Part shown: positions 23,058 through 52,255 of the stretch, one piece after another
How positions within the stretch are numbered: position 1 is the first letter of the stretch
Layout of the letters: each line of letters begins with the position of its first letter
Source of the DNA: Candidatus Onthoplasma sp.
GTDB lineage: Bacteria; Bacillota; Clostridia; Christensenellales; UBA1242
NCBI GenBank assembly: GCA_045578345.1
Contig: JAZNKB010000008.1
Span: 121,376 to 185,375, forward strand
DNA length: 64,000 nucleotides
Reading direction: 5' to 3'
Notes under the pieces: generated by a model
What the model saw: only the letters and a program-made list of their open reading frames with translations
Told to the model about the DNA's origin: nothing
Databases searched by the model: none
Position numbers and translations under genes: made by a program

Positions 23058-23190
23058 TTCGAGTTTATATAAATTAAATCCACTTTTTCTTTAAACGAGA
23101 ATCTTTCGCCCGAACAACTTATGATTTAATGAATACTCTTGTTAACGTATTCAGAAAATCATCTTAGTGAGCGGTGAAAACTTCGAGTTT
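23058..23190. repeat. AACGAGAA...TTCGAGT structured repeat, type B unit
   Basis: Shares linker and ends with the 45249-45572 array; abuts the polA stop codon. Confidence 0.8.
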
Positions 23191-25714
23191 ACTTGGCATC
23201 AAAAAGCGTTTTACCCTCTTCAACTTCAACCAAAAGCGGAACTTTTAGGTTAACAACACTTTCCATTTCTTCCTTTAAAATTTTTTTAATTACTCCACTT
23301 TCACCAGGATAACAATCAACAACAAGTTCGTCGTGAATTTGCAAAACTAATTTACTTTTTAAATTTTCATTTTTAATTCTGTTATAAACTTTAATCATTG
23401 CAATTTTAATGATATCACTTGCACTTCCCTGAAGTGGCATATTTTTTGCAACACGTTCAGCAAAACTTCTCACAACATGATTGTTTGAATTGATATCGTT
23501 TAAATGACGAATTCTCCCCATAAATGTTGTTGCATATCCCTTTTCTCTTGCAACGCGCACACACTCGTCACCATATTCTTTAACTTGCGGATAAATTTCC
23601 ATATATTTTTTAATAAATTCATTGGCTTCTTTAACCGTTGAATTAATGTTTTGACTAAGACCATACGCCCCAATCCCATAAATAATTCCGAAGTTAACAG
23701 ACTTTGCAACTCTTCTCATGTTCTTGGTCACATCATCCAATTCAACTCCAAATATTTTACTTGCTGTTGCAGTGTGAATATCTTTTCCGCTTAAATAATC
23801 ATTAATCATGGTTTCATCACCGCTAAAATTTGCAATTAGACGCAACTCAATTTGATTGTAATCCGCACTTATCATTGTTCCACCATCAAAAGAACTTAAA
23901 AACATTTTTCTCAAAACTCTGCCTTCATCATCACGAATTGGTAAGTTTTGAAGATTTGGCTCTCTGCTTGAAAGTCTGCCTGTTGAAGTTGTTCGTTGCA
24001 TGAAAGTTGTGTGAATTTTATTGTCACTGGAAACATAATTTAACATTCCATCTAAATACGTGCTTATAAGTTTTGCAATTTTACGATACCTTATGATATA
24101 TTCAACAATTTCATGTTTATCTTTAATTGAATTTAAAACTTCAATTGATGTACCCTGTTTTCCTTTATATTCGATTTTGAGTTTATCAAACAAAATTGAT
24201 TGCAATTGTTTCGGACTATTTATGTTAAATTCAACACCCGCCAGTTCATAAATTTTTGATGTTAATTCTTCAAGTTCTTTATGATAAACTTCACTTAAGT
24301 TTTTAATTTGTTCGGTATCGATTTTAATTCCTGTTTGCTCCATATCAAATAAAACTTCAACAAGCGGAAGTTCAATCTCGCTATACAATTTCAATTGTAG
24401 AGATTTGATTAGTTGATTGATATAGATTTCTTTTAATTTTAAAAGCAATATTGCTCTTCCATTTGAACTAAGTTGATTAAGTTTTATTGCGTCATCAAAA
24501 GTTATTTCTGCATCCATTTCATTGACAATATAAATTGCAAGAGAAACATCAAAATAATTATTTAATTGAATTCCATAAAAACTCAATTCTTTCATTAAAC
24601 TTTTAACATCAAAACAAATTTTTTGTTTTTCACTTGAAAATAATTCTTTTATTTTATCTTCGTTAAATGCAAACATCATACCACTTGTGTATAACACAAA
24701 TTCTTTGTTATCTTTTGCAAATCTAATTGTCATTTCATCTGTTAAAACAGCAAATGAATCTCCTAAAAACTCAACCATTTCGTCAAACATTTCGTTGGTT
24801 TCAATTTCTATAATTTCGGCAGTTATTTCGTTAGTTACATCCTCAACTACTTCGTAAGTTTCTGAAAACAATTCTTTTCTTTTAAGCATTGATTTAAAAT
24901 CTAAATCTTGCATGATTTGATATGTTTCTTTGTTAAATGGCAATTTATATTCACAATCACTTAAAGTGCAATCTAAATCAACATCAAGTTTAATGGTTGC
25001 AAGTTGTTTTGAAAGATATGCCATTTCCTTGTTTTCAATAAGTTTTGCCTGAATTCCTTTTGCCAAACTTTCAATATTAACATATATGTTATCCAAATCT
25101 CCATATTCTGCAATAAGTTTGTTTGCACCAACTTTTCCAATTCCTGCAACACCTGGAATGTTATCCGAACTATCACCCATGATTGCTTTTAGTTCAATCA
25201 CTTGATAAGGTTCAAGATTAAATTCGGATTTCAAAACTTCTGGGGTAACTTTTAATACGTTGCTTATTCCTTTTTGAGTGAGCCAAACAGTTGTGTTGTC
25301 GTTCACAAGTTGCAACAAATCCTTATCTCCAGAAATAAGCATAAATTCTTCGTTAAACTTTCTCGTTAAAGTTCCAACAATGTCATCTGCCTCAATTTCT
25401 TTCTTTTCTAATGTTAAGATTCCCATTGTATTCAAAAGATGTTTAAGGTCCACAAGTTGAGAATGTAAATCTTCTGGCATCGGGCCACGAGTTCCTTTGT
25501 AGTCTGCAAACATATTATGCCTAAATGTATGTTTCCCTGCATCAAAAACACAAACCAAATATTTTGGTTTTTCACTTGTGACAACACTTAACATCATGTT
25601 AATAAATCCATAAATCGCACCACAAGGTTTTCCAGATAAACTTTTAAGCATTGGCATTCCATAATATGCACGATTGATTAAACTATTTCCGTCAATAATA
25701 ACAAATTTTTCCAT
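23189..25714 (-). CDS. polA: DNA polymerase I
   Basis: 5'-3' exonuclease (DGNSL, EADD, GDSSDNIPGV) and polymerase motifs (TGRLSS, ADYNQIELR, KSVNFGIIYG, QIHDE). Confidence 0.97.
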   Translation of the reverse strand: MEKFVIIDGNSLINRAYYGMPMLKSLSGKPCGAIYGFINMMLSVVTSEKPKYLVCVFDAGKHTFRHNMFADYKGTRGPMPEDLHSQLVDLKHLLNTMGILTLEKKEIEADDIVGTLTRKFNEEFMLISGDKDLLQLVNDNTTVWLTQKGISNVLKVTPEVLKSEFNLEPYQVIELKAIMGDSSDNIPGVAGIGKVGANKLIAEYGDLDNIYVNIESLAKGIQAKLIENKEMAYLSKQLATIKLDVDLDCTLSDCEYKLPFNKETYQIMQDLDFKSMLKRKELFSETYEVVEDVTNEITAEIIEIETNEMFDEMVEFLGDSFAVLTDEMTIRFAKDNKEFVLYTSGMMFAFNEDKIKELFSSEKQKICFDVKSLMKELSFYGIQLNNYFDVSLAIYIVNEMDAEITFDDAIKLNQLSSNGRAILLLKLKEIYINQLIKSLQLKLYSEIELPLVEVLFDMEQTGIKIDTEQIKNLSEVYHKELEELTSKIYELAGVEFNINSPKQLQSILFDKLKIEYKGKQGTSIEVLNSIKDKHEIVEYIIRYRKIAKLISTYLDGMLNYVSSDNKIHTTFMQRTTSTGRLSSREPNLQNLPIRDDEGRVLRKMFLSSFDGGTMISADYNQIELRLIANFSGDETMINDYLSGKDIHTATASKIFGVELDDVTKNMRRVAKSVNFGIIYGIGAYGLSQNINSTVKEANEFIKKYMEIYPQVKEYGDECVRVAREKGYATTFMGRIRHLNDINSNNHVVRSFAERVAKNMPLQGSASDIIKIAMIKVYNRIKNENLKSKLVLQIHDELVVDCYPGESGVIKKILKEEMESVVNLKVPLLVEVEEGKTLFDAK

Positions 25715-25768
25715 GTGATTATTATAACCAAAAATAAAAAATTTGCAAAATAAAAAGCGGCAATATTT

Positions 25769-27028
25769 CTAATTGTCGCTATTATTAGTTTCTTCAGTGT
25801 TGACATTATTATTGTCTAATAAGCTAAATTCTTCTGGAACGTATGATAATAATTTTTCTTTATATTCAGCATAAACTTGTATAACTGCTTGCAATTTTGC
25901 CTCAAAAATTTCTTCCCTGCAACATCCGTTTTCCATTGTTTTTCCTGATTCTAAGATTAATTCATCTCTACGTTGTTTCATTTCATCTAAATATGGAATT
26001 TCTTCAACTTCAGTTCTTGCCATTCTTGAAGATTTTAAATGTTTGTGTTTTAGGCCATACATATTTAACAACTCTGAAACACTAATTCCCATCTGAACTG
26101 ACTTTTTAACAACCTTTCCATAATCTTTTGGATCAACATCTTTAGCAACAACGACATTGTCTTTGCATTGAATTTTTAAGTTTATAATTGCTTGATCAAT
26201 GTTGGTGTTTTCCCTTGTAACATCCCAAAATCTATGTTCAACATCACTAAGCCCAAAGATTTCCAACCAATCAAGTTTGCTAAATCCTAATTCGCTACCA
26301 TCACTATAATATCTGGTTAAATATTCAAATGCATTGTAAACTTTTGGATGATCTCTTCTAATTCCAACAAAAGTCCCATATTTTTTTGCATGATTTTTCA
26401 ACATTCTTTCAGTGAATTTAACTTTATCCACTTCAATTATGTATGATGTTTGTTTTTCATCACACAATAAGCAAATAATAAAATAATATGGCACACGATA
26501 TGTTATTGCAATATCTTTCACATATGTTCTTAAATGTTCGTTGTTTCTATAACTGTCTATATAGCCATTTTCGTCTCTAAAGTCTTTTAACTTTTCAAGA
26601 TCCTTACAACGATAATAATCATCAGAAAAATTTAAATAACCCAAATCGAATTTCATGATTTGTTCGTGAGTTTTGAACTCTCCCCGCCTTTCCAAATGGT
26701 TTGAATATGTTGCCAATTGTTCATAAAACGGTAATTTCTTTCTTGGAATATGAAAACTTTTCCCTTGTGCAACATAATCAGCAACCGCTTCAACAAGTGC
26801 AAGCCGTGTGTCTTTCACGTATTTTGCATTTCTTGGATGATGCAATTTTTTAAACTTCTCTTCCAAAGTTAAAACCTTACCATTTTCTCCAACAACTCTT
26901 GTGTTTTTAATGTATTTATATTCTTTATCATCCTTTCCAAGATTGTTAACGTCTCCACCTGATGCTACATAATCATCCAACATTTTCTTTGCTTTAACAA
27001 AAAAAATTGTATCTTCAAAAAGCGACAT
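25769..27028 (-). CDS. Hypothetical protein with about five degenerate 55-70 aa helical repeats
   Basis: 419-aa ORF, RBS GGAGG, own promoter. Confidence 0.75.
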   Translation of the reverse strand: MSLFEDTIFFVKAKKMLDDYVASGGDVNNLGKDDKEYKYIKNTRVVGENGKVLTLEEKFKKLHHPRNAKYVKDTRLALVEAVADYVAQGKSFHIPRKKLPFYEQLATYSNHLERRGEFKTHEQIMKFDLGYLNFSDDYYRCKDLEKLKDFRDENGYIDSYRNNEHLRTYVKDIAITYRVPYYFIICLLCDEKQTSYIIEVDKVKFTERMLKNHAKKYGTFVGIRRDHPKVYNAFEYLTRYYSDGSELGFSKLDWLEIFGLSDVEHRFWDVTRENTNIDQAIINLKIQCKDNVVVAKDVDPKDYGKVVKKSVQMGISVSELLNMYGLKHKHLKSSRMARTEVEEIPYLDEMKQRRDELILESGKTMENGCCREEIFEAKLQAVIQVYAEYKEKLLSYVPEEFSLLDNNNVNTEETNNSDN

Positions 27029-27142
27029 AACTCCTCCAATTCTTGTTATAATAACATGAAAAAATGAAATTTACAATAATTTTTTCAAAAATGCTTGTCA
27101 AAGCTCATTTTGTGTGATATAATTCAAATGTTAAAAAAACAA

Positions 27143-27228
27143 GCCGGTGTGGCGAAATGGCAGACGCACAAGACTCAAAATCTTGCGGGAGCAATCCCGT
27201 GTCGGTTCGACCCCGACCACCGGCACCA
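27143..27228 (+). tRNA. tRNA-Leu(CAA)
   Basis: GCCGGTGTGGCGAAATGGCAGACGCACAAGA-CTCAAAA-TCTTG...GTTCGACCCC..CACCGGCACCA. Confidence 0.97.
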
Positions 27229-27555
27229 CGTCGCAACTCGATTTTTTAGTTGAGTTGCATTTTTTATGCAACTTAAACCTTTTTATTGGTTGCTCCTTAA
27301 TCCCATGCGAAGCACTTTGTTTGCTTCTTTGGGAACCCTGCAGAAATCATATACTACTTCTTTTTTTGTTCTTTAATTGTTCGTTTTTAGGTTGTCGCCT
27401 AGCGCCGTCAAGTTCGTGCAAGCGCTCTCATTCATTACTCTAAGACTTGCCAAATTTAGTCACAATAAAACTAATTTATTTGCTTTGCTCATAAATATAG
27501 TTTGTTGTTAGTCACAATAAAAAATCTCATTCTGATAAATGAGATTTTTTTTAGA

Positions 27556-30480
27556 TTATGGTAACTCAGGTTGAGCGTTAATATCGAAGATCATCATTGG
27601 AACAACACCACTTATCATTGAGTATCTTCCACTTCCTGAATACATATAACCATCGAATTCACCAGATTCATTAATATATGGCATAGCATCATATCTACTA
27701 GTGTAATCTTTATGTCTAATAGAAATGTCGTCAGCAGGATCTAAGAAATTACTTCTCATGAAGTATTCATCATAACCTAATCCTTGCATCTTAGAGTAAT
27801 CAGTACTTGTTTTTGATAATTCTAATCCTTCCTCTATTAATTGTTTTAGAGTGTTAGCATTGGCAAGGAATATATTGTCACATACATCAATAGCTCCAGG
27901 ATTATCACTTGTCTTGTATAATGATAATTCACTATTTCCATATTTGGTTTCGATTATTTTACGTTCATTATTATCATAGTATACATAATCTTCAGTAGAA
28001 GAATCAATGTATAGTTTATCTTCGTTTCTTTCCTGATGATAGTCTGAATTAGTGCCACTCCAACGAGTCGCTACCATCTGTCTTTCATAATAACCAAATG
28101 CGGTATTATAGAAACTTTCGTTTAGCCATTTTCTAAGTGAACTTGCATACCAAGCAGTGTTATGAACACCCGAAGTAAAATATTTTCTATTAGAAGCATT
28201 GTATGTATAATGATGAAGTTTATTTGAAATCCACACTTCTGACTCTGTATACCCATCTTGATATTGTTGAGCATCGATGATCAGGTCGCTCATCAATAAG
28301 TATTTACCATTTTCTTCGCCAATAATATTCCATTTAATAGGTTCGTACTTAAACCAATATAAAGTTCTGAGTGCATAACCATTATTGTCTTGATAAGAAT
28401 TATCTGCAGTTGCATTATCAACAGCGTCTATTGGTCTATATGCTATTAAGTAAACAGCTCTATATTTATTGCCTTCGTATTCAAGGTCATGATAATAGTT
28501 ACTACAATAATCTGCTGGTCTATAGTTATAATTAAAACTTGATAGATATGGATATTCAGTCCAGAAATTGCCATTATAAAGGGCATCACTCGGATAATTT
28601 ACACTCTCAGTATTTTTTTCTTCGAGGGCGTTTTTTAATGCATTCATCAATGTTTCATCAGTTACTTGACCTTGAGGGTACATACCGAAGCAGATAACGC
28701 CTCTATCTTCGTGTATACAATACATATTTGCATCATATTGAATACTTGATTGATTCAATGTGTGATTCTCAGTATTACATATACAATAACAATCAACAAA
28801 TTCATGTTCGGTACATAATTCCCATTTTGCTACATAGTTCTTGGTTTGAGTAGATATGATCTCCTCGAATGTCTGATCTGTTGTCACTAATTCTTCGTTT
28901 AAGTGCCAACCTTGCCAAATATATCCAACTTTTGGCTCAGCTTTGATTGTGGCAGGTTTACCATATACAGGGAATTGATCCATACTAACTGTGCCACCCT
29001 CTTCGTCTGTGCTAGATACTGAGACAGAACATACTTCCCAAGTAGGTGTAATACTATACGATTCGTCAGTAATAGTTAATGTTAAAGTATACTCAGAACT
29101 AATGATAGTGCCACTATCTTTGTATCCAATCCATGTGTAGATTTTACCATTGCTAGCAGGGGTTGTATATGGTTCTGTTGTAATAGTAACAGAACTTCCT
29201 CTTTCTATCATTTCATAGAAATTACCTAGATTACCACCAGCTCCATCAGACTTATATACTAATTCTTTAGTAGTGGTAGGAGATTTAACAGTTATCTTTC
29301 CACGAACAGGGTTTGGGTATGGATATTTTACAGACACATAATAATAAGTCCATCTCGCTTCATAAGTAGCGTCTTCATAGATAGTTATTTTTTGTCTGAG
29401 TTCTTCAGTGAATAGTTCACCATCTTTGTACCAACCTAAGAATGTATAACCTTTGTTTGTTGTAGCATTAAGAGTTAGTTGATGTCCATAATTGAATTCT
29501 CTATCAGTAAAGTCATTGGTAGTACCTGCGTTAGCGTTATTTCCTATTATAGATATTGTATATTTATAGATATCGAATTTAGCCTCTATTGAATAATTAC
29601 TATATGGCATAATGAATGTATATTCTTTATCTTCACTAATTAGAGTGCCATCATTTTTATTGTACCAACCTACAAAGTAACAACCACTTTCAGGGAATGC
29701 TTTTAAAGTGATAGGTGTACCAGCAACGGCCACATTTCCAGTGGAACCAGTGTGCGGACTATGTGATCCACGATAGTAGTTATTTGACTCTATGAAGTAC
29801 TTGTATTCGGTGAAATAAGCATAGAAAGTCTTGTTTGTATTATAAGAATACACATCAATAGATACACCGTTTGGCTCTGTAACAGCATTTAAACTATATT
29901 TACTAGTGGACCAACCATTGAATGTATAAGTAGTGCCCTTAGTAACTACAGGTAGGGTGAATGACTCACCATATTCTACCTGAATAGTAGTCTCGCCGTC
30001 CATCTCGCCACCATTTAAATCTAAAGTAATTGTGTAGTAAATTGGCTCAGGTTCTGGTTCTGGCTCAGGTTCCGGTGTAGGATCCTCTGGAATAGGATCA
30101 TCTGGCGTTGGAGTGTCAGGTGTTGGATCGTCTGGAATAGGATCATCTGGAGTGTTGTCTCCAGCGTTAGGATCTACAATCCATTTAGCATACACCTCAG
30201 CGTTATTGGTGATTTCGCCTCTAAACAGTTGAGATTCATCTAATTTGATATGCCATACGCCTTCGTCCCAATACCAACCGTCGAATATCATTCCTTCTTT
30301 TACAGGATCTTGTGGCATATTGATTTCGTCAAAATCTTCTAGAACAATCGTTTCATATACATCACCGTCTACTATGAATTTAAGTTTAGCTTTTTTATCT
30401 TTTTGCAGACAACCCATAGAGAAGACCGATATGATTACTAACAAGGTTGATAGAACAATCATGCCCAATTTTTTCTTCAT
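27556..30480 (-). CDS. Surface lipoprotein: InlB B-repeats, Pro/acidic linker, divergent InlB repeats, C-terminal DUF6273-like domain
   Basis: Lipobox FSMGC; F-x-GWY repeats; PDDPTP/PEPEPE linker; EPIKWNI..LLMSD..WYASSLRKWLN. Confidence 0.8.
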   Translation of the reverse strand: MKKKLGMIVLSTLLVIISVFSMGCLQKDKKAKLKFIVDGDVYETIVLEDFDEINMPQDPVKEGMIFDGWYWDEGVWHIKLDESQLFRGEITNNAEVYAKWIVDPNAGDNTPDDPIPDDPTPDTPTPDDPIPEDPTPEPEPEPEPEPIYYTITLDLNGGEMDGETTIQVEYGESFTLPVVTKGTTYTFNGWSTSKYSLNAVTEPNGVSIDVYSYNTNKTFYAYFTEYKYFIESNNYYRGSHSPHTGSTGNVAVAGTPITLKAFPESGCYFVGWYNKNDGTLISEDKEYTFIMPYSNYSIEAKFDIYKYTISIIGNNANAGTTNDFTDREFNYGHQLTLNATTNKGYTFLGWYKDGELFTEELRQKITIYEDATYEARWTYYYVSVKYPYPNPVRGKITVKSPTTTKELVYKSDGAGGNLGNFYEMIERGSSVTITTEPYTTPASNGKIYTWIGYKDSGTIISSEYTLTLTITDESYSITPTWEVCSVSVSSTDEEGGTVSMDQFPVYGKPATIKAEPKVGYIWQGWHLNEELVTTDQTFEEIISTQTKNYVAKWELCTEHEFVDCYCICNTENHTLNQSSIQYDANMYCIHEDRGVICFGMYPQGQVTDETLMNALKNALEEKNTESVNYPSDALYNGNFWTEYPYLSSFNYNYRPADYCSNYYHDLEYEGNKYRAVYLIAYRPIDAVDNATADNSYQDNNGYALRTLYWFKYEPIKWNIIGEENGKYLLMSDLIIDAQQYQDGYTESEVWISNKLHHYTYNASNRKYFTSGVHNTAWYASSLRKWLNESFYNTAFGYYERQMVATRWSGTNSDYHQERNEDKLYIDSSTEDYVYYDNNERKIIETKYGNSELSLYKTSDNPGAIDVCDNIFLANANTLKQLIEEGLELSKTSTDYSKMQGLGYDEYFMRSNFLDPADDISIRHKDYTSRYDAMPYINESGEFDGYMYSGSGRYSMISGVVPMMIFDINAQPELP

Positions 30481-30702
30481 ATTTCCTCCTTTATAAAATT
30501 GCACATTTATTATCTTGATAAAATGTGTTAAGATATTATTATGATAGTATATTGTGTCATAAAAATCAACCAATTGACATGTCTTTAGAAATATTACCAC
30601 CACTCGAAAGCACAAGCTAAATGCTTGTGCTTTTTTTATTTCAAAAAAACACATAAGAAACCAAGAAAAAACTAAATCGTACTCGATTTAGTTTTTTTGT
30701 TT

Positions 30703-32124
30703 TTACTTTAATTTATATGTTGTTCCTTCTTTTGTGTCGATTAATTCAATGCCTTTTTCGGCTAGTTCATTTCTGATTTCATCTGCTTTTTGATAGTTCT
30801 TTTCTACTTTTGCTTTTTTACGTTGTTCAATCATTTTTTCAACATACGCTTTGAGTTCACCATCAATTTCAACTTCTACTTCAACTTCAGTTTTTAAATT
30901 GAACGCATCTGCTAACCCCAAATTTAAAACAGTGTCGAAATCTTTAATTAAAGCAATCTTAGTGTCGTTATTAACATCCGCTTTTAACACATCAAAAATT
31001 GTTGTTATTGCCGTTGCTGTGTTTAAATCATTCGCTAAGCATTTTTGGAACTTTTCTTTATGCTCATTAAACTTTTCCATATCAACTGGCAAGTTTTCAG
31101 CTTTTAAGTTTGTTAAACGTTTGATGAGTTTATCATATGCTGATTTTGCCATATCAAGACCTTCGTATGAGAAAACAAGTTGACGTCTATAATGAGATTG
31201 CAAACAGAAGAACTTGTAAACCATAGGTGAATAACCTTTTTCTTCAAGCAAACTTAAAGTTAAAAATTCACCTTTGCTCTTGCTCATTTTTCCGATTGTT
31301 GTGTTTAAGTGTTCTGAATGGAACCAATAATTACACCATTTATGACCAACAAAACTTTCTGTTTGAGCAATTTCATTTGTGTGATGCGGGAATTTATTGT
31401 CAACTCCACCACAGTGTATATCTAAATATTCTCCTAAGTATTTATGCGAAATTCCCGAACATTCAATATGCCAACCAGGGTAACCCTCGCCCCATGGACT
31501 ATCCCATTTAAGAGCATGGTTTTCAAATTTAGACTTGGTAAACCATAAAACAAAGTCATTTTGATTTCTTTTACCTACATCTTCTTCAACATCATCTCTT
31601 GCACCAACAACCATGTCATCACTTGTTTGATTTCCAAATTTATAATAACTATCTAGTTTTGATGTGTCAAAATAGATATTGCCATTGCTATGATAAGCAT
31701 ATCCTTTTTCAAGAAGTGTTGAAATGATTATTATATATTCATCAATACATGATGTTGCAGGAACAACAATTTCAGGCCATTTCAAATTTAATTTTTCACA
31801 ATCATTTTTGAAACAATCTGTGTAAAACTTTGCAATTTCCATAACTGTTTTATTTTCTCTTTTTGCACCCATGAGCATTTTATCTTCACCTGTGTCGCCA
31901 TCACTTTGGAGGTGTCCAACATCTGTGATGTTCATTGCTCTTGTTACATTATAACCCAAATAGTTAAGAGAACGTTCCAAAATATCTTCCATTATGTAAG
32001 TTCTCAAATTCCCAATGTGAGCAAAATGATATACTGTTGGACCACAAGTGTACATCTTAACATTTTTGCCATCGTTGGGAATAAAATCTTCCACTTCTCG
32101 GGATAATGAATTGTATAATTTCAT
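30703..32124 (-). CDS. cysS: Cysteine-tRNA ligase
   Basis: CGPTVY, HIGN, PGWHIECS, KMSKS. Confidence 0.97.
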   Translation of the reverse strand: MKLYNSLSREVEDFIPNDGKNVKMYTCGPTVYHFAHIGNLRTYIMEDILERSLNYLGYNVTRAMNITDVGHLQSDGDTGEDKMLMGAKRENKTVMEIAKFYTDCFKNDCEKLNLKWPEIVVPATSCIDEYIIIISTLLEKGYAYHSNGNIYFDTSKLDSYYKFGNQTSDDMVVGARDDVEEDVGKRNQNDFVLWFTKSKFENHALKWDSPWGEGYPGWHIECSGISHKYLGEYLDIHCGGVDNKFPHHTNEIAQTESFVGHKWCNYWFHSEHLNTTIGKMSKSKGEFLTLSLLEEKGYSPMVYKFFCLQSHYRRQLVFSYEGLDMAKSAYDKLIKRLTNLKAENLPVDMEKFNEHKEKFQKCLANDLNTATAITTIFDVLKADVNNDTKIALIKDFDTVLNLGLADAFNLKTEVEVEVEIDGELKAYVEKMIEQRKKAKVEKNYQKADEIRNELAEKGIELIDTKEGTTYKLK

Positions 32125-42569: not shown

Positions 42570-42726
42570 TCATGTTAAGTGGAGTGTAACGGAATAAAGT
42601 GAGCGTAAAACAAGCGAAACATCCCATAATCAGAACGTAGTGCTTCGCGTTAAGGGATCCTTCGACTTCGCTCAGATCTCGCAAAATAAGATTTTGTGAG
42701 GTCCTTTCGCTTCGCTCAGGATGAAA
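42570..42726. repeat. REP-like element
   Basis: GGGATCCTTCGACTTCGCTCAG and TTCGCTTCGCTCAGGATGA; similar to 12780-12900. Confidence 0.7.
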
Positions 42727-42883
42727 ATTGTATTATTTTTTTACTGTTTAATTTATTGGCAAAAAACATATAAAACACGGCATTACAATAAAAAATTTGA
42801 TTTTTTTATTATTTTTTTAAAAATTTTTAATTTTTATCGTAAAAAAACAAAAAAAGGATTAAAAAATCCTTAATTTTTATTTT

Positions 42884-43960
42884 TTATTCAACAATTGAAA
42901 TTGTTTCGTTTGAAATATTTAATCTTTTGTCCGCAAGTTTTTCAACTTGATTGAAACCATTATGTGGCATTACTGCAATCAAACTTATTGACCCTTTACC
43001 CTTTGTTTCTTTTGCAAGTGAAACAAAATTTTTCATCAACATATCACCATTTTTTTCGATCCCATAAATTGAAGACATATCGTCAACAACAAGCAAAACA
43101 TCTTCCTCAATTTCCAAAATTCTTTTGGCACGTTCAATTGCAAGATTAACAATTCTTTTCACAATATCAGTTTCATCCATAATACTTGAAATGAAATTTT
43201 CTGTATTTTTAAGTTCTGATAAATAAATTTGATTTTTGCCTGCAACTGCAACATTTACATAAAGTTTGTTTGCAATTTTCGCATTGTTAAGCAAGCGAAT
43301 TACAGTTTGAGTGTTTTGATTATTATTTGTTCCATACACATAAGTATTTTCGCCAAGTTTTATGTTTAAAGAATTTAAATCTTGTTCATTAAATTTTAGA
43401 TCCCTATTTGGAAGCACGTTTTCAATTGAGTCATAACTTTTTCTTTTTGCTGGAAGATTTAAAATTGGAGAATCATTGATTGAGAAAATTCTTTTAACAA
43501 CTTTTTGATTTTCATCAACATTAACTTCCGCAACAATTCTATCGCCCATTCTCACTTGATAATCCTGCAGAACTACGCTTGGAACAAAATAGTTTTCATT
43601 TTTAAAATTTTTCTGAACCCACAAAATTCCCGCATTGTTGTTAACAAGTTCAAGCCAACCAGCAACAGTTACAATATCTTCAGTTTTATATTCAGTGACA
43701 TCCTGATGCAAAGTTTGAACAGATGAAATTTGATTTTCATTGCCAGAATCAAAAACATTTGCAAAGTTATAATCAAAAACTTTCGGCGGTCTGCCCTGTT
43801 TTGACTTGGAAGTTGTTGGAGACTTTTTCCCAGTTGTTATTTCAACAATTTCATTAATAAGTTGTTCTTTCTTTTTGCTTGTTGGAGAATTAACACCTGT
43901 TTTTCTTGCCAAATCTCTTAATGCAAAGATGTTAAGTTCATTTAATTTTTTTTCTAACAT
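42884..43960 (-). CDS. Rho-like protein (Rho_N + OB RNA-binding + degenerate, truncated ATPase)
   Basis: LRDLARKTGV..KKKEQLI; GWLEL..GD.I; AIERAKRILEIEEDVLLVVDD; no GKT Walker A. Confidence 0.8.
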   Translation of the reverse strand: MLEKKLNELNIFALRDLARKTGVNSPTSKKKEQLINEIVEITTGKKSPTTSKSKQGRPPKVFDYNFANVFDSGNENQISSVQTLHQDVTEYKTEDIVTVAGWLELVNNNAGILWVQKNFKNENYFVPSVVLQDYQVRMGDRIVAEVNVDENQKVVKRIFSINDSPILNLPAKRKSYDSIENVLPNRDLKFNEQDLNSLNIKLGENTYVYGTNNNQNTQTVIRLLNNAKIANKLYVNVAVAGKNQIYLSELKNTENFISSIMDETDIVKRIVNLAIERAKRILEIEEDVLLVVDDMSSIYGIEKNGDMLMKNFVSLAKETKGKGSISLIAVMPHNGFNQVEKLADKRLNISNETISIVE

Positions 43961-44128
43961 ATTTTCACCTTTCGACATTTTCTCTTAAATATTAACACAT
44001 ATTCGACATTTTGTAAAGAATTTTGTACAAAATTATTTTTTGAACAATTTGATAATTCAATAAAAAAGTTTAGGATTGTTTCCTAAACTAATAGTTTGTT
44101 ATACCCATTACCCAAGCTAAGGTTTGGT

Positions 44129-44476
44129 TTAGCTTGTAATTCCCAAGCTAATCATCATTGCAATATCAACTTGATTCATTTTCAATTTGTCTATTGAGCA
44201 AACTTTATCTTTCAACCTTCTTTTATCCAGTGTTCTAATTTGCTCAAGCAATATAACACTATCTTTGTTAAGGTTATATTTATCTTTGCTAAGTTCAATA
44301 TGAGTTGGCAGTTTTGCTTTTTCAAGTTGACTTGTTATTGCAGCAATGATAACCGTTGGGCTAAATTTGTTTCCAATATCATTTTGAATCACCAAAACCG
44401 GGCGAACACCACCCTGTTCACTTCCAATAACAGGGCTAAGGTCTGCATAATAAATGTCGCCACGAGCAATGTCCAT
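44129..44476 (-). CDS. ndoA: MazF/NdoA (PemK-family) endoribonuclease toxin
   Basis: [32 protein letters not shown]...LEQIRTLDK. Confidence 0.95.
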
Positions 44477-44667
44477 CAATCTCCTTTTAAATACCTTATG
44501 GTCACACACTCATCATCAATTAAATCATATTCAAACATAATGTTTTCAATTGCCAACAAGTATTCATTATCAGTATATGCCATTAGGTTAAATTTTGGCA
44601 TTAGCGGTTTTTGCACCATACCAAAATTTAAGAGATATTTAATATATTCGTTTATCTCTTCGTCCAT
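44476..44667 (-). CDS. Small acidic protein, putative antitoxin
   Basis: 63 aa, RBS GGGAG, TGATG overlap with the mazF start. Confidence 0.6.
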
Positions 44668-44689
44668 ATATTCTCCCTAAATTTTATTC

Positions 44690-45130
44690 TTAAACTTTAG
44701 ATAGTTGTTTTTTTAATTTTTCGTAAAAATCTTCTTGCATTTTCTTAAATTCGGCAACCATAAGATTGAGATCTTCATTTTTTGTTTTTAAGTCTTTTTC
44801 CGCTTTAATTGTGTCAACAATACCCATAACTGTTCCGTTAATCATCATTTCAACAATATGTCTGGGTGATTTATCCATCCACAACATCATATAAAGCATT
44901 ACAGTTTGTTTTGTTTTTTTGAAAAAACTGTTTTCCTTAATTTCAAAATCGTTATTAACAGCAAAAACATCACACTTGTTTGCAAATTTTTCATACATAT
45001 CGTATTGTTTTGCAAACAATTTCTTCAAGGTTTCATTTTCTATCTTTTTTAAAATTTTATCAATTGCAAGCATTCCAACTGTTGCATCTTGATAAATTCT
45101 GTTTGCCAAAGTCATTTCTTTTTGTTCCAT
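44690..45130 (-). CDS. Conserved clostridial four-helix (ferritin-like) hypothetical protein
   Basis: RBS GGAGG; IYQDATVG..IVEMMINGTVMGI pattern. Confidence 0.7.
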   Translation of the reverse strand: MEQKEMTLANRIYQDATVGMLAIDKILKKIENETLKKLFAKQYDMYEKFANKCDVFAVNNDFEIKENSFFKKTKQTVMLYMMLWMDKSPRHIVEMMINGTVMGIVDTIKAEKDLKTKNEDLNLMVAEFKKMQEDFYEKLKKQLSKV

Positions 45131-45248
45131 CTTATCCTCCGAGTTTAGTTTTCTCTGTTTACTCATAATTATGCAACAAAAAAGAGACCTCTTAATTAGG
45201 TCTCAATTTAAATTAAAAATCTTAAGTCAATGCATATAAATACAACGA

Positions 45249-45572
45249 TTCGAGTTTATTTAACAATCATCCGCTTCTTCATAAAACGAGAATTGATTGC
45301 GTTTTACGACTTTGCGTAAGCACTCAAGTAAAACACAATAATTCGAGTTTCTTTAACAATCTCCACTTTTCCTTATAACGAGAAGTTTTCACCTGAACGA
45401 CTTAGCATGAGTTTTGGCCTCTTTGCATCAAAGTGTACCAAAAGGAATGCGTTTAGTGAGCGGTGAAACTTCGAGTATTTATAAACAACATCCGCTTCTT
45501 CCTAAAACGAGAATTGATTGCGTTTTGCGACTTTGCGTAAGCACTTAAGTAAAACACAACAATTCGAGTTTC
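45249..45572. repeat. A-B-A tandem array of AACGAGAA...TTCGAGT structured repeats
   Basis: TTCGAG at 45249, 45342, 45470 and 45563 (periods 93/128/93 bp); the two A units are nearly identical. Confidence 0.9.
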
Positions 45573-45573
45573 T

Positions 45574-46512
45574 TTAAATCCATATTAACCCATATCCTAA
45601 GATTAAGCTTGGAATGATTAACATACAAACAATAAATAAATTCACTTTCCAATTCTTGTTTTGTTTAAAGAGCATAATTAACCCAAGCCCAGCATTAACA
45701 CACAATCCTGCAACCAATGCACCAAAAGACAAACCTTTAAGCAAGAATAATTCAGTTAAAACAACACTAGATGCACAATTTGGAATTAAACCTATTATAA
45801 CTGCAAGCAGTGGCTGAGCATATTTCCCAGTATTTAAGAAAGAAATTAATTTTTCTTCTCCAACCCAAATATGTGTTATAAACCCAAAGATTATATTAAT
45901 AATCAATATAAACGCACTAATTTTAATACAGTGCAACATTGGGTGCCACCAATCAAATGATTTTGTTTCTACGTTATGATGACAACAACCACCATGTGCC
46001 ACTTCAAGTTCTTCTTCATGATTATGGTCTTCATTATGGTTCTTATGTTCAGCTTTAGTTTCATTGTGTTTTTCTTGTTCCAAAATCTCAGAATGGATTT
46101 TCTTTCTAAATAAGACTTTATACAAACCAATTGATAGATAACCAATTAAAACAGCAAAAACAATTTTTACGCCAATTAAAAGCAACATCCATAAAAATGA
46201 TTTTGGTTGAGCTATCATAAGTGGCAAAGCTTCATCACTGGTTGCAATGTACACTGCAATTAAAGCTCCAATGCTAAGTTTTCCTTTACTAAATAAATCT
46301 GTTGACACAACTGAGAATCCACATTGCGGAACACATCCTAAAACTGCACCAGCAACAGGGCTTGCCTTTCCTTTAAGCAACTTGCTTTTATGGATATGTC
46401 CTGCATTTTTAAACTCAATTAATTCAATCAAATAATAGACAACAAAAAGAATCGGTAAAACTTTTACCATGTCAACAAGCGCTTCTAAAATTACGTGCCA
46501 ATACTCGTGCAT
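45574..46512 (-). CDS. Putative manganese/metal transporter (permease with His-rich loop)
   Basis: GCVPQCGFSV, ATSDEA, GLIPNCASSV; His-rich linker. Confidence 0.8.
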   Translation of the reverse strand: MHEYWHVILEALVDMVKVLPILFVVYYLIELIEFKNAGHIHKSKLLKGKASPVAGAVLGCVPQCGFSVVSTDLFSKGKLSIGALIAVYIATSDEALPLMIAQPKSFLWMLLLIGVKIVFAVLIGYLSIGLYKVLFRKKIHSEILEQEKHNETKAEHKNHNEDHNHEEELEVAHGGCCHHNVETKSFDWWHPMLHCIKISAFILIINIIFGFITHIWVGEEKLISFLNTGKYAQPLLAVIIGLIPNCASSVVLTELFLLKGLSFGALVAGLCVNAGLGLIMLFKQNKNWKVNLFIVCMLIIPSLILGYGLIWI

Positions 46513-46647
46513 TTAAATTCCTTTTGTGTTTAACTTGTAAATTATACCATACACAAAGAAAAAAATCAATCCTTGCCTTAATAAAAAATGTAAAAATTTA
46601 ACATTTTTATTTCTTTAATGTTTACTTTGTCGAAACATATCTTGAGC

Positions 46648-47154
46648 CTATATGAAACGACAACAAAAGCACGCAAGTATGCAACAAACAACATTGCACA
46701 ATAATGCTATTGGAATTGTGAGCCCTGTTTTCTTCACTTTTGTGGTTGCAAAATATATGCTACTAACATAGAAAATTGTGTCACTACTTCCCATAATAAC
46801 GCTTGCACATTTTCCAACATAACTATCCACACCATAACGCGAAAAAATATCACGTAAGAGCACATAACCAGCATTTGAACTAAACGGTCTAATCAATGTT
46901 AATTCACACACCTCAGGTGGAACTCCAACAAGACGAAAAACTGGGGATAAAAATTTGCAAAGATAATCACTCAATCCACTGTTTCTAAACAACTCCACCG
47001 CAACAAACATTGCAATCATATACGGCAAAAGAGAAGCCATCAGCGGAAGCGCACCTTTTGCTCCTTTAACAAAACCAGAATAAGCATCAACACCTTTAAT
47101 TAAAGCATAAACAAGCACAAAAGCAATCAAAATAGGAATGAATAAATCAACCAT
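46648..47154 (-). CDS. spmB: Spore maturation protein B
   Basis: RPFSS, GVDSY, MGSSDTIFYV. Confidence 0.9.
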   Translation of the reverse strand: MVDLFIPILIAFVLVYALIKGVDAYSGFVKGAKGALPLMASLLPYMIAMFVAVELFRNSGLSDYLCKFLSPVFRLVGVPPEVCELTLIRPFSSNAGYVLLRDIFSRYGVDSYVGKCASVIMGSSDTIFYVSSIYFATTKVKKTGLTIPIALLCNVVCCILACFCCRFI

Positions 47155-47725
47155 TTTTCACCTGCTTTTTCTTTGCTTTTTGATAAATTAATGCAACTAA
47201 AATAATTCCCAAAATTGTTGGAATAAATGTTGCTACAATGGTTGGCCAAAGAATACAGCTTGGACTAACACTTCCAACCATTGCCCGCATTCCAATAACC
47301 GTTGTTGGAAGAAGTTGAATCCCTGTTGAATTTATCACAACCAGCATAATCATTGCACGTGTCGCTTTGTCACTACCATTATCAAGCCCCTTCATTGCCT
47401 TGATTCCATAAGGTGTTGCTGCAGAGCCAATTCCTATTATGTTTGAAGCAATGTTTAAGCATATGTTTTTTTCAGTTTCTTTGTCTGTTTGGCCAAAAAT
47501 TCTTCTAACTGGTCTAGACAATATTGAAGACAACTTATGACTAAGTTTACAATCATCCAAAACCTGCATCAGCCCCATCCAAACAGCATAAATCCCAATA
47601 AATTCAATTGCCATAGTAACACCCATTTTTGCAGCATTCATCATTGTTGAAATTATGCTCGAAGGCGCAGTAAAAGAAGTCATTGCCAAACTTGAAATCA
47701 TAATAATTAACCAAATTTTACTCAT
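47147..47725 (-). CDS. spmA: Spore maturation protein A
   Basis: SNIIGIGSAATPYGIKAM, QLLPTTV; sigmaE-like promoter. Confidence 0.9.
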   Translation of the reverse strand: MSKIWLIIMISSLAMTSFTAPSSIISTMMNAAKMGVTMAIEFIGIYAVWMGLMQVLDDCKLSHKLSSILSRPVRRIFGQTDKETEKNICLNIASNIIGIGSAATPYGIKAMKGLDNGSDKATRAMIMLVVINSTGIQLLPTTVIGMRAMVGSVSPSCILWPTIVATFIPTILGIILVALIYQKAKKKQVKNG

Positions 47726-47843
47726 GTTATAATTTATGCTTAAATAATTTGTATATGAAAAAATAGAAACTTAAATTTGATAATTATTTTTAATACATTA
47801 AAATTGAATTGAAAAAGATATGCACTCAGCATATCTTTCTTGT

Positions 47844-48593
47844 TTATTTTGTAACATTAATATTTAAGAAAACTTTATCTTGCGATTCATAAATTGCACT
47901 TACAATTTTTTCACAAATTCCTGAAATTTCTTCACCTTCTTCGATTCCGAAATCTGTTGCAGAACCAATTGCATATGCTTGGAATGTGAATGAAATGCTT
48001 GCATTTTGATAGTCGTTACCCATTGCACCAGCTAATGATAATTTGTTTTCACCTATTACAGTGATTCCATTATCCCCGCTTTGAGTTGGTTCGAAATCAA
48101 CCATTGAAACTAAGCAACGATAAACAACATCTCCTTCAGCTGGATTAAACACATAATCCACCCAATCTGTGTTTTTCACATTTTTCTTTGAACTTTCTTC
48201 AGGATATAATGCATTTACATATTCAACACCTAAACCCAACACTGGATCTATGTGTTGATCCACAATTTCTTTCTTATCTTCATCAAATGCTTTAATTTCA
48301 TACACAACAACTAATCTAATGCTTACACTTGATAAATTTCTAACAACCAATGGTGAATTTTCAAGCGGTTGACCAGGAACCACATTAATACCATTTGATA
48401 TTACAATTTCACTCTTATCACTTGTTCCCGATTCCATTGTTATTTTCAAGTTAGCCATAACAATTCTACCAGAAACCTGATTGGATCTTGCACTGTAATA
48501 AGCAAAGACTCCACCAAAACTAATTGTGAGCATTAACATCACAGCCAAAATTATGATAGCGATTGTTTGCCCAGACACTTTCTTCTTTACCAT
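47844..48593 (-). CDS. Exported protein with SipW-type signal (TasA/CalY-like)
   Basis: Signal ending GGVFAYYS; VVPG; GNDYQNASISFTFQAYA. Confidence 0.6.
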   Translation of the reverse strand: MVKKKVSGQTIAIIILAVMLMLTISFGGVFAYYSARSNQVSGRIVMANLKITMESGTSDKSEIVISNGINVVPGQPLENSPLVVRNLSSVSIRLVVVYEIKAFDEDKKEIVDQHIDPVLGLGVEYVNALYPEESSKKNVKNTDWVDYVFNPAEGDVVYRCLVSMVDFEPTQSGDNGITVIGENKLSLAGAMGNDYQNASISFTFQAYAIGSATDFGIEEGEEISGICEKIVSAIYESQDKVFLNINVTK

Positions 48594-48773
48594 TTTTACC
48601 CCTATTGTTTGATTGGCACAATCCACCAAAAATTCTTTAACAAAATTATTTTAATTAATTAAAATTTAATTGTCAAATAAAAATGGAAAAATATTGAATT
48701 TTTTTGAAATTTAATGAAATATGTCTTATTTTAATAAAAACATCAATACCAGTTGCATTTACTTATTGGTGTA

Positions 48774-49139
48774 CTACATAATTTGTTGTATAATATAATT
48801 TCTAACAAGATAAACAAATTCTCTGCACGTTGGACACATATTTGGCGGATAATAAGTGTTTAATTTAGTCATCATGTCATAGTTCCAACATTTATGAATC
48901 AAATTTCTTATATTTCTTTCAATTGTACAATCCGTTTTACCATATTTCATTGCAATTTGCGGATAAACTTCTTTTGAAAATGAAATTATTCTTCTTTCTT
49001 CATTAATTAACATTTGCATTATTTCAACTAATAAATAAAAACCAGTGTATTTTCTGAAGATTCCCAAATTATCTAACTGTTTTAAAAAGTAAACATTACT
49101 CGCAACATTCTTTCCATATCTCATTTCTTTAGGACTCAT
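48774..49139 (-). CDS. Stand-alone Spo0A C-terminal DNA-binding domain protein
   Basis: LGI...GFYLL...SKEVYPQIAMKY....IERNIR...PTCREF; no receiver domain. Confidence 0.85.
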   Translation of the reverse strand: MSPKEMRYGKNVASNVYFLKQLDNLGIFRKYTGFYLLVEIMQMLINEERRIISFSKEVYPQIAMKYGKTDCTIERNIRNLIHKCWNYDMMTKLNTYYPPNMCPTCREFVYLVRNYIIQQIM

Positions 49140-49287
49140 TTTAACCTCCTTTTCATTTCTTTTAACACATTTTAAAAACCATGTCAATCATTTTTGTACA
49201 AAACATTCCATATTTTTGTACAAAATTAAATATTTCGACAAAAAACGCATAAAAAAGGTCTGTACATAAAGCACAAACCTTAAAATT

Positions 49288-51441
49288 TTATTCAATACCT
49301 TTCATTGTTAGTGAAATTCTTTTCTTTGTTAAGTCAACAGAAAGAACTTTAACTTTAACCTTTTCACCAACTTTAAGCACATCACTTGGATGAGAAATAA
49401 ACGCATTAGAAATTTGAGATATGTGAACAAGACCATCTTGATGAACACCGATATCAACAAAGGCACCAAAGTCGATAACATTTCTCACAACACCATCAAG
49501 AACCATATCTGGTTTCAAATCTTCCATACTCAAAATATCGCTTCTAAGTTCTGGCAACGGCATATCTTCACGAATATCACGACCTGGTTTTAAAAGTTCT
49601 TTAACAATATCTTGAAGAGTTGGAACACCAACACCAATAACTTCTGCAACGCTATTCTCACCCTTTTGATCAATTAAGTTTGGAAGCATGCTAAGTTCAT
49701 TGTTTTTGATATGCTCATGAGTTAAATTAAATAATTTTAACAATTTATTAACAGCGTCATAACTTTCAGGGTGAACTGCAGTGTTATCTAAAATATTATT
49801 ACCATCCGTAATTCTCAAGAAACCTGCACATTGTTCATATGCTTTTGGTCCCATTTTCTTAACGTTCATAAGTTCACTTCTATCACTAATGTGCTTAACT
49901 TGACTGCGGTAATCCACAATGTTTTCAGCAAGGCTGTTTGAAATTCCTGAAACGTAAGCAAGAAGGCTCACTGACGCGGTGTTAAGGTCAACACCAACAC
50001 TGTTAACACAATCTTCCACTGTGTTTGTTAAAACTTCTGTTAAACGGTTTTGAGGCATGTCATGTTGATATTGTCCAACACCGATTGATTTAACATCAAT
50101 TTTAATAAGTTCAGCAAGTGGATCTTGCAATCTTCTTGCAATTGAAACCGCACTACGCAAATTAACATCATAATCTGGGAATTCTTTTGCTGCAAGTTTA
50201 GATGCTGAGTAAACTGATGCCCCTGCTTCGTTTACCATTGCATAACTAACTTTTCTATCTAAAGTTTTAATCATGTCAGCAACCAAAATTTCACTTTCTT
50301 TGCTTGCTGTTCCGTTTCCGATTGCAATAATGTCAACATTATTTTTTGCAATCATTTGACTTAGTTTTACCTTTGCTTCTTCAACCTTGTTTTGTGGTGG
50401 AGTTGGATGAACAACTGCAGTGTCAAGCACGTCCCCTTTTGTGTCAATAACTGCAATTTTACAACCATTATAATATCCAGGGTCATAACCCATGATAACA
50501 TTGTTTTTAAGCGGTGCTTGAAGCAACAATGGTTTTAAGTTAACTTCAAACATTTTAATTGCTTGTTCATTTGCTCTGTCAGTCAATGTTCTTCTACATT
50601 CATTTTCAAGAGATGGGAACAACAATCTATCATAACTATCTTTGATTGTGTCTAAGATGATTTGGTCTGTAAATTCATTTTCTTTTTTATATATTTTTTC
50701 GATTTCAGTTAAAGTTAATTTTTCATTAATTTCAACGTTAACTTTTAAGCAGTCTTCTTTTTCACCACGGTTAAGAGCCAAAATTCTGTGACTTGGAAGT
50801 TTTACAACTTCTCCTTTGAAATCTTTATAGTTTTCATAAGTTTTGTTTTCGTCCGCTTCTTCATCCCAAACAGCAGTGATTTGTGCTTTTTTTGCAATGA
50901 TTTCACGAAGAACTTTTCTTAGATTTGCGTCATCACTAATTCTTTCAGCAATAATATCCATTGCTCCAGCGATTGCTTCTTCAGAGCTCTTCACACCTTT
51001 TTCTTCATCTATGTATTGTGATGCAATATTTTCAACAGGTTCTGTAACTTCTTGCGCTTGAATGATGTCTGCAAGCGGTTCAAGACCTTTTGCAATTGCC
51101 ATTGTAGCCCTTGTTTTACGTTTTGGCTTATATGGCCTATATATATCTTCAACTTCAGTGAGAGTTAACGCATCAGCGAGAGCCTTTGCAATCTCATCAG
51201 TCCATTTTTCTTGTTCCTTGATTACCTTTTCAACTTTTTCTTTTTCTTTGTTAAGGTTTCTTAAATAATTAAGTCTATCAGCAAAGTCACGCAAGACTTG
51301 GTCATCACAAGCACCATGCATTTCTTTACGATAACGCGCAATGAAAGGAATTGTGTTTCCCTCATCAATCAAATTAATGATGTTTTCAGCATATGATTCT
51401 TTAAGATTAAATTCATATGCCAATTGTTGTTGTAATTCCAT
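49288..51441 (-). CDS. tex: Tex-family RNA-binding transcription accessory protein
   Basis: TIPFIARYRKE, DPG, SIARRLQDPLAEL, GVGQYQHD, C-terminal S1. Confidence 0.95.
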   Translation of the reverse strand: MELQQQLAYEFNLKESYAENIINLIDEGNTIPFIARYRKEMHGACDDQVLRDFADRLNYLRNLNKEKEKVEKVIKEQEKWTDEIAKALADALTLTEVEDIYRPYKPKRKTRATMAIAKGLEPLADIIQAQEVTEPVENIASQYIDEEKGVKSSEEAIAGAMDIIAERISDDANLRKVLREIIAKKAQITAVWDEEADENKTYENYKDFKGEVVKLPSHRILALNRGEKEDCLKVNVEINEKLTLTEIEKIYKKENEFTDQIILDTIKDSYDRLLFPSLENECRRTLTDRANEQAIKMFEVNLKPLLLQAPLKNNVIMGYDPGYYNGCKIAVIDTKGDVLDTAVVHPTPPQNKVEEAKVKLSQMIAKNNVDIIAIGNGTASKESEILVADMIKTLDRKVSYAMVNEAGASVYSASKLAAKEFPDYDVNLRSAVSIARRLQDPLAELIKIDVKSIGVGQYQHDMPQNRLTEVLTNTVEDCVNSVGVDLNTASVSLLAYVSGISNSLAENIVDYRSQVKHISDRSELMNVKKMGPKAYEQCAGFLRITDGNNILDNTAVHPESYDAVNKLLKLFNLTHEHIKNNELSMLPNLIDQKGENSVAEVIGVGVPTLQDIVKELLKPGRDIREDMPLPELRSDILSMEDLKPDMVLDGVVRNVIDFGAFVDIGVHQDGLVHISQISNAFISHPSDVLKVGEKVKVKVLSVDLTKKRISLTMKGIE

Positions 51442-51488
51442 GTAATTTTTCCTTTTAATGTTTTGTGAAATAAATACCACTTAAGTTT

Positions 51489-51567
51489 AAGCGAGAATTG
51501 ATTTCCCGAACGACTTAGGCTTTGCGTAGGCAAATCGCCGTTTAGTAAGAGGAAACAATTCGAGATT
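51489..51567. repeat. AACGAGAA...TTCGAGT family unit in the tex 5' leader
   Basis: GCGAGAATTG..GAACGACTTAG..GTTTAGTAAG..CAATTCGAGA. Confidence 0.75.
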
Positions 51568-52253: not shown

Positions 52254-52255
52254 AT

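Follow-up and report, generated by a model that had tools for sequence, protein, structure and literature searches.

A family of bulged hairpin repeats behind stop codons in Candidatus Onthoplasma resembles REP and YPAL elements

Small palindromic repeats are scattered through many bacterial genomes, and the mechanism by which ERIC, YPAL, BOX and MIRU elements move is still unproven (PMC2229807). Here we describe a family of structured repeats found in a 64,000-nucleotide stretch of DNA from Candidatus Onthoplasma sp. (the window; positions 121376-185375 of contig C8, JAZNKB010000008.1), which shares features with several of these systems. Like the YPAL/RU-2 elements of Yersinia, it is probably non-autonomous, has internal inverted repeats and no terminal TA, falls in or near their range of 100-170 nt, shows filled and empty sites and targets beside dyad symmetry, and is co-transcribed with upstream genes (PMC2229807). 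It resembles the REP, BIME and REPIN sequences of the RAYT system as a species-restricted extragenic palindrome that lies downstream of genes, sometimes supplies their stop codon, forms mosaics and makes a bulged single-strand hairpin (PMC3733652). ERIC/IRU and other miniature inverted-repeat transposable elements (MITEs) are likewise long stem-loops of ~100-130 nt in transcribed intergenic DNA (PMC2229807), the MIRUs of mycobacteria are mobile repeats at a translation signal that do little harm to the gene (PMC12548453), and the Ssn-NTS/SRM system pairs a hairpin with a conserved flank that gives orientation and is recognized as a single strand (PMC11893778). With integron attC sites the family shares a folded antisense strand (here by prediction and covariation), extrahelical bases, a variable apex and a position behind stop codons (PMC4792948). 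BOX and SPRITE are further small repeats behind the comparison (PMC3049150).

The best match is an element of the REP/YPAL type with unusually strict placement, and for each of attC, REP, MITE and MIRU a defining feature is missing. It is set apart from YPAL, by description rather than by sequence, in that its hairpin is asymmetric with strand-specific tandem G·A pairs, its orientation is fixed, it lies 0-6 nt from stops and it forms head-to-tail arrays; for the 3-26-bp target duplication of YPAL (PMC2229807), the signs here are ambiguous. REPs are 20-40 bp long and bear a GTAG or CGTC tag (PMC3733652), whereas the hairpins described here span 60-100 nt and are untagged (at 111 hairpin feet we found GTAG once, CTAC 6 times, CGTC never and GACG 3 times), the units of an array all share one direction, and they are not linked to any RAYT/Y1 gene. 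Unlike the MITEs ERIC, RUP and Correia, the family has no terminal inverted repeats, and both its leader and its tail are found beyond the hairpin, to one side of it. The MIRUs target start codons and contain a coupled open reading frame (ORF) (PMC12548453), whereas 27 of 32 loci here lie at stops. The attC sites conserve an AAC crossover (PMC4792948); in contrast, this family has no conserved AAC/GTT, no IntI match, and core genes rather than cassettes as neighbours. In contrast to Ssn-SRM, what flanks the small GIY-YIG genes of this genus is the TGTC repeat rather than the family described here. The family makes a sharp test case: a minimal core of ~30 nt recurs in distant lineages, the strand is fixed, placement is accurate almost to the base, and both filled and empty sites are numerous. 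If its anchoring is read from translation or transcription, this would add a new targeting rule to those of mobile DNA, with a bearing on the origin of integron cassettes; otherwise, it is one more lineage-specific repeat, usable as a strain marker.

An earlier note on the window had reported five units and read them as a structure-recognised mobile module, or an RNA motif, that builds cassette-like arrays, a reading that as a whole is partly supported by what follows. The source genome (G000) is 1.09 Mb long with ~31% G+C, is 94.7% complete and contains sporulation genes. Because BLASTN with the array at the permease locus matched 0 of 40 relatives, a covariance model was needed. This model, R1, was trained on 22 short copies and identifies 40 copies in G000 at E<=0.01, so that the family is larger than the five units, all of which are nonetheless present where they had been placed. 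BLAST closure on G000 gave 42 loci, about ten of which belong to a sister family, and a hidden Markov model of the 5' arm gave 40 anchors, a few of them spurious, with zero matches at E<1 in the reversed genome as a chance control. A loose descriptor scan was dropped, as it returned 69 matches against 57 in the reversed control at -10 kcal/mol. A search of Rfam with the window and 7 loci, ribozyme families included, gave no relevant match at the gathering score and nothing relevant by E-value (best 5.1), and a literature search, with subscription journals and supplements outside its reach, found no account of the repeat. The sequence family thus appears to be new. Neither a match to a described REP, MITE or Rfam family nor a lack of covariation, the two findings that the earlier note had thought would tell against its proposal, was observed.

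On the strand predicted to fold, a unit of 90-130 bases runs from an AT-rich tail through a TCCRCTT leader to one long bulged hairpin. A leader was called in 77 of 111 copies, and in 72 of these it starts 15-16 nt ahead of the hairpin foot; ~25 nt of conserved unpaired sequence lie on one side of the hairpin only. The foot consists of 3-4 variable bp followed by a CGAG/CGAG tandem G·A; above it come a stem in which one A is bulged (GATTG/CAAC) and then a second position, occupied by TT/AA in some copies and by GA/GA in others. Next are an RC/GY pair, the 3 nt of the RAY bulge, TT/WA, a bulge on the 3' side and GC/GC, with RC-RAY-TT/WA-GY as the core, and the apex of 3 to ~55 nt is free. Several details of the earlier description change as a result. 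What had been taken as a separate ~44-bp linker is really a composite of one hairpin's foot, an AT spacer and the next unit's TCCRCTT leader and hairpin foot; the proposed ACT/AGT core gives way to the RC/GY register (columns 42/80 are GC in 12, AT in 9 and GT in 1 of 22 copies); and the AAC...GTT ends are not conserved (5 of 39 copies). The arrays contain no ORF. The units also differ from intrinsic terminators, in that most have no U-tract directly behind the stem: at least 6 T in the 8 nt after the foot occur on the folded strand in 8 of 111 copies, the mRNA strand having been judged by eye only. A TGTC-tagged palindromic repeat, present in ~96 segments across G000 (e.g., C5:10429-13565 and C6:69720), is often fused to the foot or tail of the stop-anchored units.

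Within the window, the unit behind polA (23075-23197, + strand, 39.9 bits) is of the long-apex type, with a CCACTT leader at 23080 and its hairpin at 23095-23187. It starts 1 nt behind the polA stop codon, a TAA at 23189-23191 (- strand) in its natural position as kept in relatives, and is accompanied by the foot of a decayed second unit and an AT spacer (23058-23074, +), a remnant of an array. The permease locus holds three units on the + strand: short unit A1 (45266-45357; leader 45271, hairpin 45286-45347, 94.5 bits), long-apex unit B (45358-45485; leader 45363, hairpin 45378-45475, 50.1 bits) and short unit A2 (45487-45578; leader 45492, hairpin 45507-45568, 98.5 bits), and the array is closed by what is left of another, truncated unit, its foot (45249-45265, +). 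A1 and A2, both training copies, are 91% identical over 108 nt, and A2 starts 5 nt behind the TAA stop (45574-45576, -) of an ArsP_2-type permease gene. Unit C (51471-51574, +; leader motif 51477, hairpin 51491-51564, 67 bits, a training copy) lies in the 5' leader of tex, between a TATAAT box (51584-51589, -) and the tex ATG at 51441. The two stop-codon contacts and the position between the tex promoter and start, as first proposed, are confirmed. Two more copies came to light: a degenerate sixth copy (8751-8840, +, 43.7 bits) in the 5' leader of the gene for a class II aldolase (7787-8707, -), immediately after a -10-like box, and a half-copy with one arm deleted (58347-58412, -), which begins 0 nt behind the truA stop on the + strand. 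Thus the single orientation claimed for the units holds for the five on the + strand, but as a rule it does not, with the truA half-copy facing the other way; orientation tracks the transcript and not the window. At tex, the unit (51560-51580) splits a TTGTGA...TCACA palindrome that is intact in the tex leaders of two relatives (G049 and G050) and resembles a regulator site.

Placement was assessed on 39 of the 40 G000 copies, which could be aligned and give 32 gene-proximal loci. Nineteen of these begin 0-6 nt past an in-frame stop of the opposite strand, compared to 1.9% of random intergenic positions, and 27 lie within -25 to +12 of such a stop (random 5.1%; binomial P for stop anchoring ~6e-25, with copies that are not independent). 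The commonest gap is 5 nt, both in G000 and in 73 copies from other genomes; among the latter, 30 lie at 0-6 nt, 14 at -23 to -1 and 5 have no stop found, only the antisense strand having been scanned. The genes upstream include ftsK, asnS, argS, rnj, ruvA, ligA, ftsY, ruvX, yidC and sleB, as well as spoIVA, lepA, prmC, prfA, rplQ and polA. Of the five loci not at a stop, two are in 5' leaders just behind a -10 box (tex and the aldolase gene). Although 33 of 36 copies face the leading-strand template, orientation by replication alone was rejected, because the copy at C7:150741, on a lagging-strand gene, follows the gene. All 7 inner array units, and 4 of the 5 loci away from stops, have a TAA, TAG or TGA 0-6 nt before them, and 30 of 77 copies have a stop-like triplet 8-9 nt past the leader, compared to 1-11 at other positions (arrays included). 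In ligA, the insertion point is a TAA in another frame, ~4 codons ahead of the natural stop and at the terminator foot, and the former gene end now follows the element. Eight loci read into the element. TTAAA lies on both sides of the ligA element, which may or may not reflect a target duplication, the empty alleles for comparison coming from other species.

The stems, whose outer parts were described earlier as differing yet paired, covary strongly in copies outside the training set. Among 31 matches from other genomes, 79.8% of cells are paired and there are 164 double changes compared to 55.7 in shuffled alignments (0 of 500 shuffles as high; slid controls 20-54), and among 41 distinct matches from one relative, G079, there are 225 compared to 73.5 (0 of 500 as high; slid controls overall span 20-62). 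These counts lean towards the model, as the alignments were fitted to it and kinship among copies was not removed. TT/AA is exchanged en bloc with GA/GA (13 TA and 8 GA in one column, 11 TA and 7 AG in the next, n=22), and all 41 called GA/GA cores occur in 5'-YGAR-3' context, which is the context of sheared G·A pairs. In the 73 copies from other genomes, GA+AG outnumber TC+CT by 183 to 30, GT+TG outnumber AC+CA by 69 to 38, and TT outnumber AA by 85 to 16. The swapping of tandem G·A with TT/AA, together with the G·T bias, indicates that the template strand, antisense to the mRNA, is the predicted folded strand. The five window units fold on the + strand with z of -2.2 to -4.6 relative to shuffles, and their mRNA strand folds as well (z -2.3 to -4.4); across 130 copies the antisense strand folds better in 107 with RNA parameters and in 98 with DNA parameters. 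Because the better-folding strand is antisense to the mRNA, a role in mRNA processing, one of the options in the earlier note, is disfavoured.

Copies were found with R1 in 17 of 63 other genomes of the genus, 1-49 each (18 of 63 with a second model), counts that are floors given the 67-79 candidates scored per genome. Samples of 150 genomes from the order and 149 from the class yielded none among 28-33 candidates scored per genome. When 24 of the 64 genomes are placed on a UvrC tree, the bearers need 5 changes (gains or losses), 3 of them forced by supported branches; one genome labelled empty on this tree later gave one match with the second model. The polA and prfA sites are empty in 5 of 5 relatives, prmC in 4 of 4, ligA in 4 of 4 and the permease site in 4 of 5, with a 5' remnant in G079, and the tex leader unit is absent in 4 of 4. 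Among the sequencing-run contigs matched to 44300-52300, none of those listed spans the permease array or the tex unit. In at least 10 of 20 comparisons of a filled relative with its G000 orthologue, the stops line up on visual inspection. These empty sites and species-to-species differences, together with the covarying stems, support the part of the original proposal that saw a structure-recognised, mobile, array-forming module. Empty alleles of polA, prfA and ligA have a terminator foot at the insertion point, and at these three genes the native terminators remain downstream of the element; those of ftsY, spmB and prmC have no terminator. A pattern scan of species genomes gave 21 loci, of which R1 accepted 19 and rejected two. 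Their records are mostly labelled 'Candidatus Onthoplasma sp.' or 'uncultured Clostridia', and two loci are in 3-Mb genomes labelled Mageeibacillus and Eubacteriales (38.2 and 30.6 bits).

A metagenome scan extended the family to the ends of stable RNAs. In 15 of its 16 loci (40-49% G+C) the 27-28-nt core recurs on top of a perfect stem that has A and T tracts. Most of these hairpins begin 4-8 nt past the CCA of tRNA-Ala or tmRNA, with other copies behind a displaced tRNA 3' fragment, antisense and at times tandem, and one overlapping the end of a GNAT gene. The metagenome loci thus point to a common core, carried by stems specific to each lineage and found where transcribed units have their 3' ends, and the displaced tRNA 3' fragments suggest that islands integrate at tRNA-Ala. 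A recurrent 172-amino-acid neighbour is a DUF6560-like membrane protein, and at five tRNA-Ala loci (L216, L218, L221, L225 and L260) tandem paralogous genes of this type end inside decayed hairpins. At locus L227 (3190-3600), about seven 60-nt repeats containing CCTACTCAATCG lie between a GNAT gene and tmRNA; an inverted pair in L227, considered as an enzyme flanked by repeats, is actually two convergent 3' ends.

Taken together, we lean towards the view that the family is a non-autonomous mobile element whose template strand is processed as folded single-stranded DNA and inserted next to a triplet of the TTA type. The template strand would fold as single-stranded DNA into the bulged hairpin for a strand-transfer enzyme, and this enzyme would join the 3' end of the element next to TTA, CTA or TCA on the template strand, that is TAA, TAG or TGA in the sense of the mRNA. 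A new unit could then land at the triplet that ends the tail of the previous unit, which would account for head-to-tail arrays of mixed types. A precedent for the one-sided flank is SsnA acting on NTS, where the flank that gives orientation beside the hairpin is crucial (PMC11893778). Insertions deeper in genes would be removed by purifying selection, and a bias linked to transcription or to terminators would account for the rare use of other intergenic triplets.

Several observations weigh against this reading. Real stops make up only 3.9% of the 24,944 stop-like triplets at intergenic edges, so a triplet plus selection against gene disruption is insufficient to explain the anchoring. The mean advantage of the antisense strand is only 1.3 kcal/mol with DNA parameters compared to 4.7 with RNA parameters, and folding thus cannot tell DNA from RNA. 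Only 23 of 93 apical loops called by regular expression are GNA/GNNA. Some sites are common to different species (ftsY, argS, rplQ and sleB), which speaks against pure gain, and since decayed remnants exist, empty sites could be losses. No cognate enzyme was found among the families searched (Y1 and Y2 HUH, GIY-YIG, reverse transcriptase, and IntI and other tyrosine recombinases). G000 lacks the HUH family Y1_Tnp, which was detected in 8 of 64 genomes; only 2 of these are bearers, and the element lies beside 0 of 12 Y1_Tnp loci. Of 8 small GIY-YIG (Ssn-like) loci, 6 were scanned and had no copy of the family beside them (best 13.3 bits); two such loci, in G079 and G024, are flanked by TGTC repeats, and G000 has no such genes. 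Pfam assigned no nuclease or recombinase family among 42 proteins, mostly neighbours without a G000 homologue, and viral contigs searched with two patterns held 0 copies. Other searches gave similar results: 42 proteins near tRNA-lineage copies comprised one IS3-type rve ORF and otherwise metabolic, membrane or unassigned proteins; Y2_Tnp (IS91-type) matched 0 of 64 genomes, and no positive control matched; a regular expression for the HUH motif matched none of the G000 ORFs of 90-330 amino acids; and G000 has 3 tyrosine recombinases. Overall, neither an HUH enzyme nor a tyrosine recombinase, the partners suggested earlier, was found to track the family. These negatives are weak, however, because old elements can outlive their enzyme.

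What else could place hairpins so precisely at gene ends? We give a small but real chance to a cis-acting RNA that works in the mRNA behind the terminating ribosome (in stability, RNase processing or release), or as an antisense-RNA barrier at gene ends where canonical Rho is missing, its copies duplicating and being kept where useful. Orientation that follows the transcript even at C7:150741, sites where untranslated RNA begins (stop codons, leaders and tRNA 3' ends), the folding of the mRNA strand too, the terminator-like A and T tracts of the tRNA-lineage hairpins and the lack of a Rho above cut-off in 5 of 5 genomes would all fit, and ERIC effects on mRNA stability depend on orientation (PMC2229807). 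However, the favoured GA, GT and TT mismatches are on the antisense strand, a T-tract follows the foot there in so few copies, native terminators persist downstream at prfA, polA and ligA, and 45-46 of 63 genomes of the genus had no copy found, with Rho missing in non-bearers too. The window encodes a 364-amino-acid degenerate Rho-like protein (42884-43978, -; 28 bits compared to a cut-off of 509), with counterparts in 3 of 4 relatives. A route through RNA and complementary DNA (cDNA), of the kind once proposed for the making of integron cassettes, seems less probable: the element would be joined to transcripts at ends defined by the ribosome or by processing (stop codon, tRNA CCA), copied to cDNA and recombined back. 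This would explain the nucleotide-level anchoring at natural stops, the same core behind tRNA-Ala and tmRNA ends and a folded strand that is the cDNA strand, but at ligA and 7 further loci the frame is not that of the natural stop, the tex and aldolase copies near promoters have untranscribed upstream flanks, and a reverse transcriptase (RVT_1) occurs in 0 of 17 other bearer genomes, yet in 10 non-bearers. The reverse transcriptase of G000 itself (498 amino acids, near 36,300 on C3; L176:1003-2499, -) is beside a recombinase-like ORF, and its neighbourhood looks like a mobile or defence island.

We consider it just as improbable as the cDNA route that no dedicated enzyme is involved and that a short core seeded terminator-like palindromes, with arm-to-arm repair and ectopic recombination making the stems and spreading them, so that covariation reflects copying. 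The failure to find an enzyme, outer stems that vary by locus, the terminator foot at the empty polA, prfA and ligA sites and the dyad symmetry of YPAL targets (PMC2229807) agree with this, whereas arm-to-arm copying would erase mismatches and bulges, yet the tandem GA and the RAY bulge persist. Moreover the core C-G pair is kept in 31 of 31 and 41 of 41 copies, the leader keeps its fixed distance, and ftsY, spmB and prmC are filled even though their empty alleles have no terminator. Somewhat further down in our estimate, and to be taken as a conjecture, is a general process by which genes and tRNAs receive, at their exact 3' ends, a strand-specific signal resembling attC, with the places where ribosomes or RNA folds let go of the transcript as its guide; it would offer a tractable model for how integron cassettes gain an attC behind the stop codon, and an undescribed enzyme class. 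That the repeats themselves are integron attC sites or a CALIN-like array is highly improbable. The imperfect palindrome, extrahelical bases, free apex, folded antisense strand and position behind ORFs fit this, and the earlier note had drawn the comparison from AAC...GTT ends on an imperfect palindrome, but membership is not supported: AAC/GTT is rare and its base triplets covary, IntI is found in 0 of 5 high-copy genomes above the TIGR02249 cut-off (best 36 compared to 265 bits, although no control genome passed either), and the upstream genes are syntenic core genes (polA, ligA, prfA, lepA, argS and ftsY), with arrays that hold no ORFs.

Other repeats and features were seen alongside the family. 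The sister family (window 61795-61950; C1:63017, C4:115414, C3:149014 and C8:87205 in G000) consists of hairpins with an ATGAAG/CGATTA core, some of which carry the same CGAG/CGAG foot; two members abut the 5' ends of tRNA genes (tRNA-Glu and tRNA-Gln), with the purine-rich strand as the transcribed strand. In ~29 segments of G000 (e.g., C7:145565-145678) a further repeat sits on Shine-Dalgarno sequences and duplicates them, and the genome thus holds three repeat types aimed at landmarks defined by RNA (stop-anchored, tRNA-adjacent and Shine-Dalgarno). Elsewhere in the window are a large signal recognition particle RNA (20685-20950, +), an S-adenosylmethionine riboswitch upstream of metK (5166-5278, -), a PemK/MazF-like toxin-antitoxin gene (44129-44509, -) and an IS3-type rve transposase ORF (58993-59778, -). 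An identical 38-nt piece of tRNA-Ser occurs at 922-959 and 3673-3710, 2.75 kb apart and around a leucine-rich repeat gene, and this pair possibly marks a small island at tRNA-Ser.

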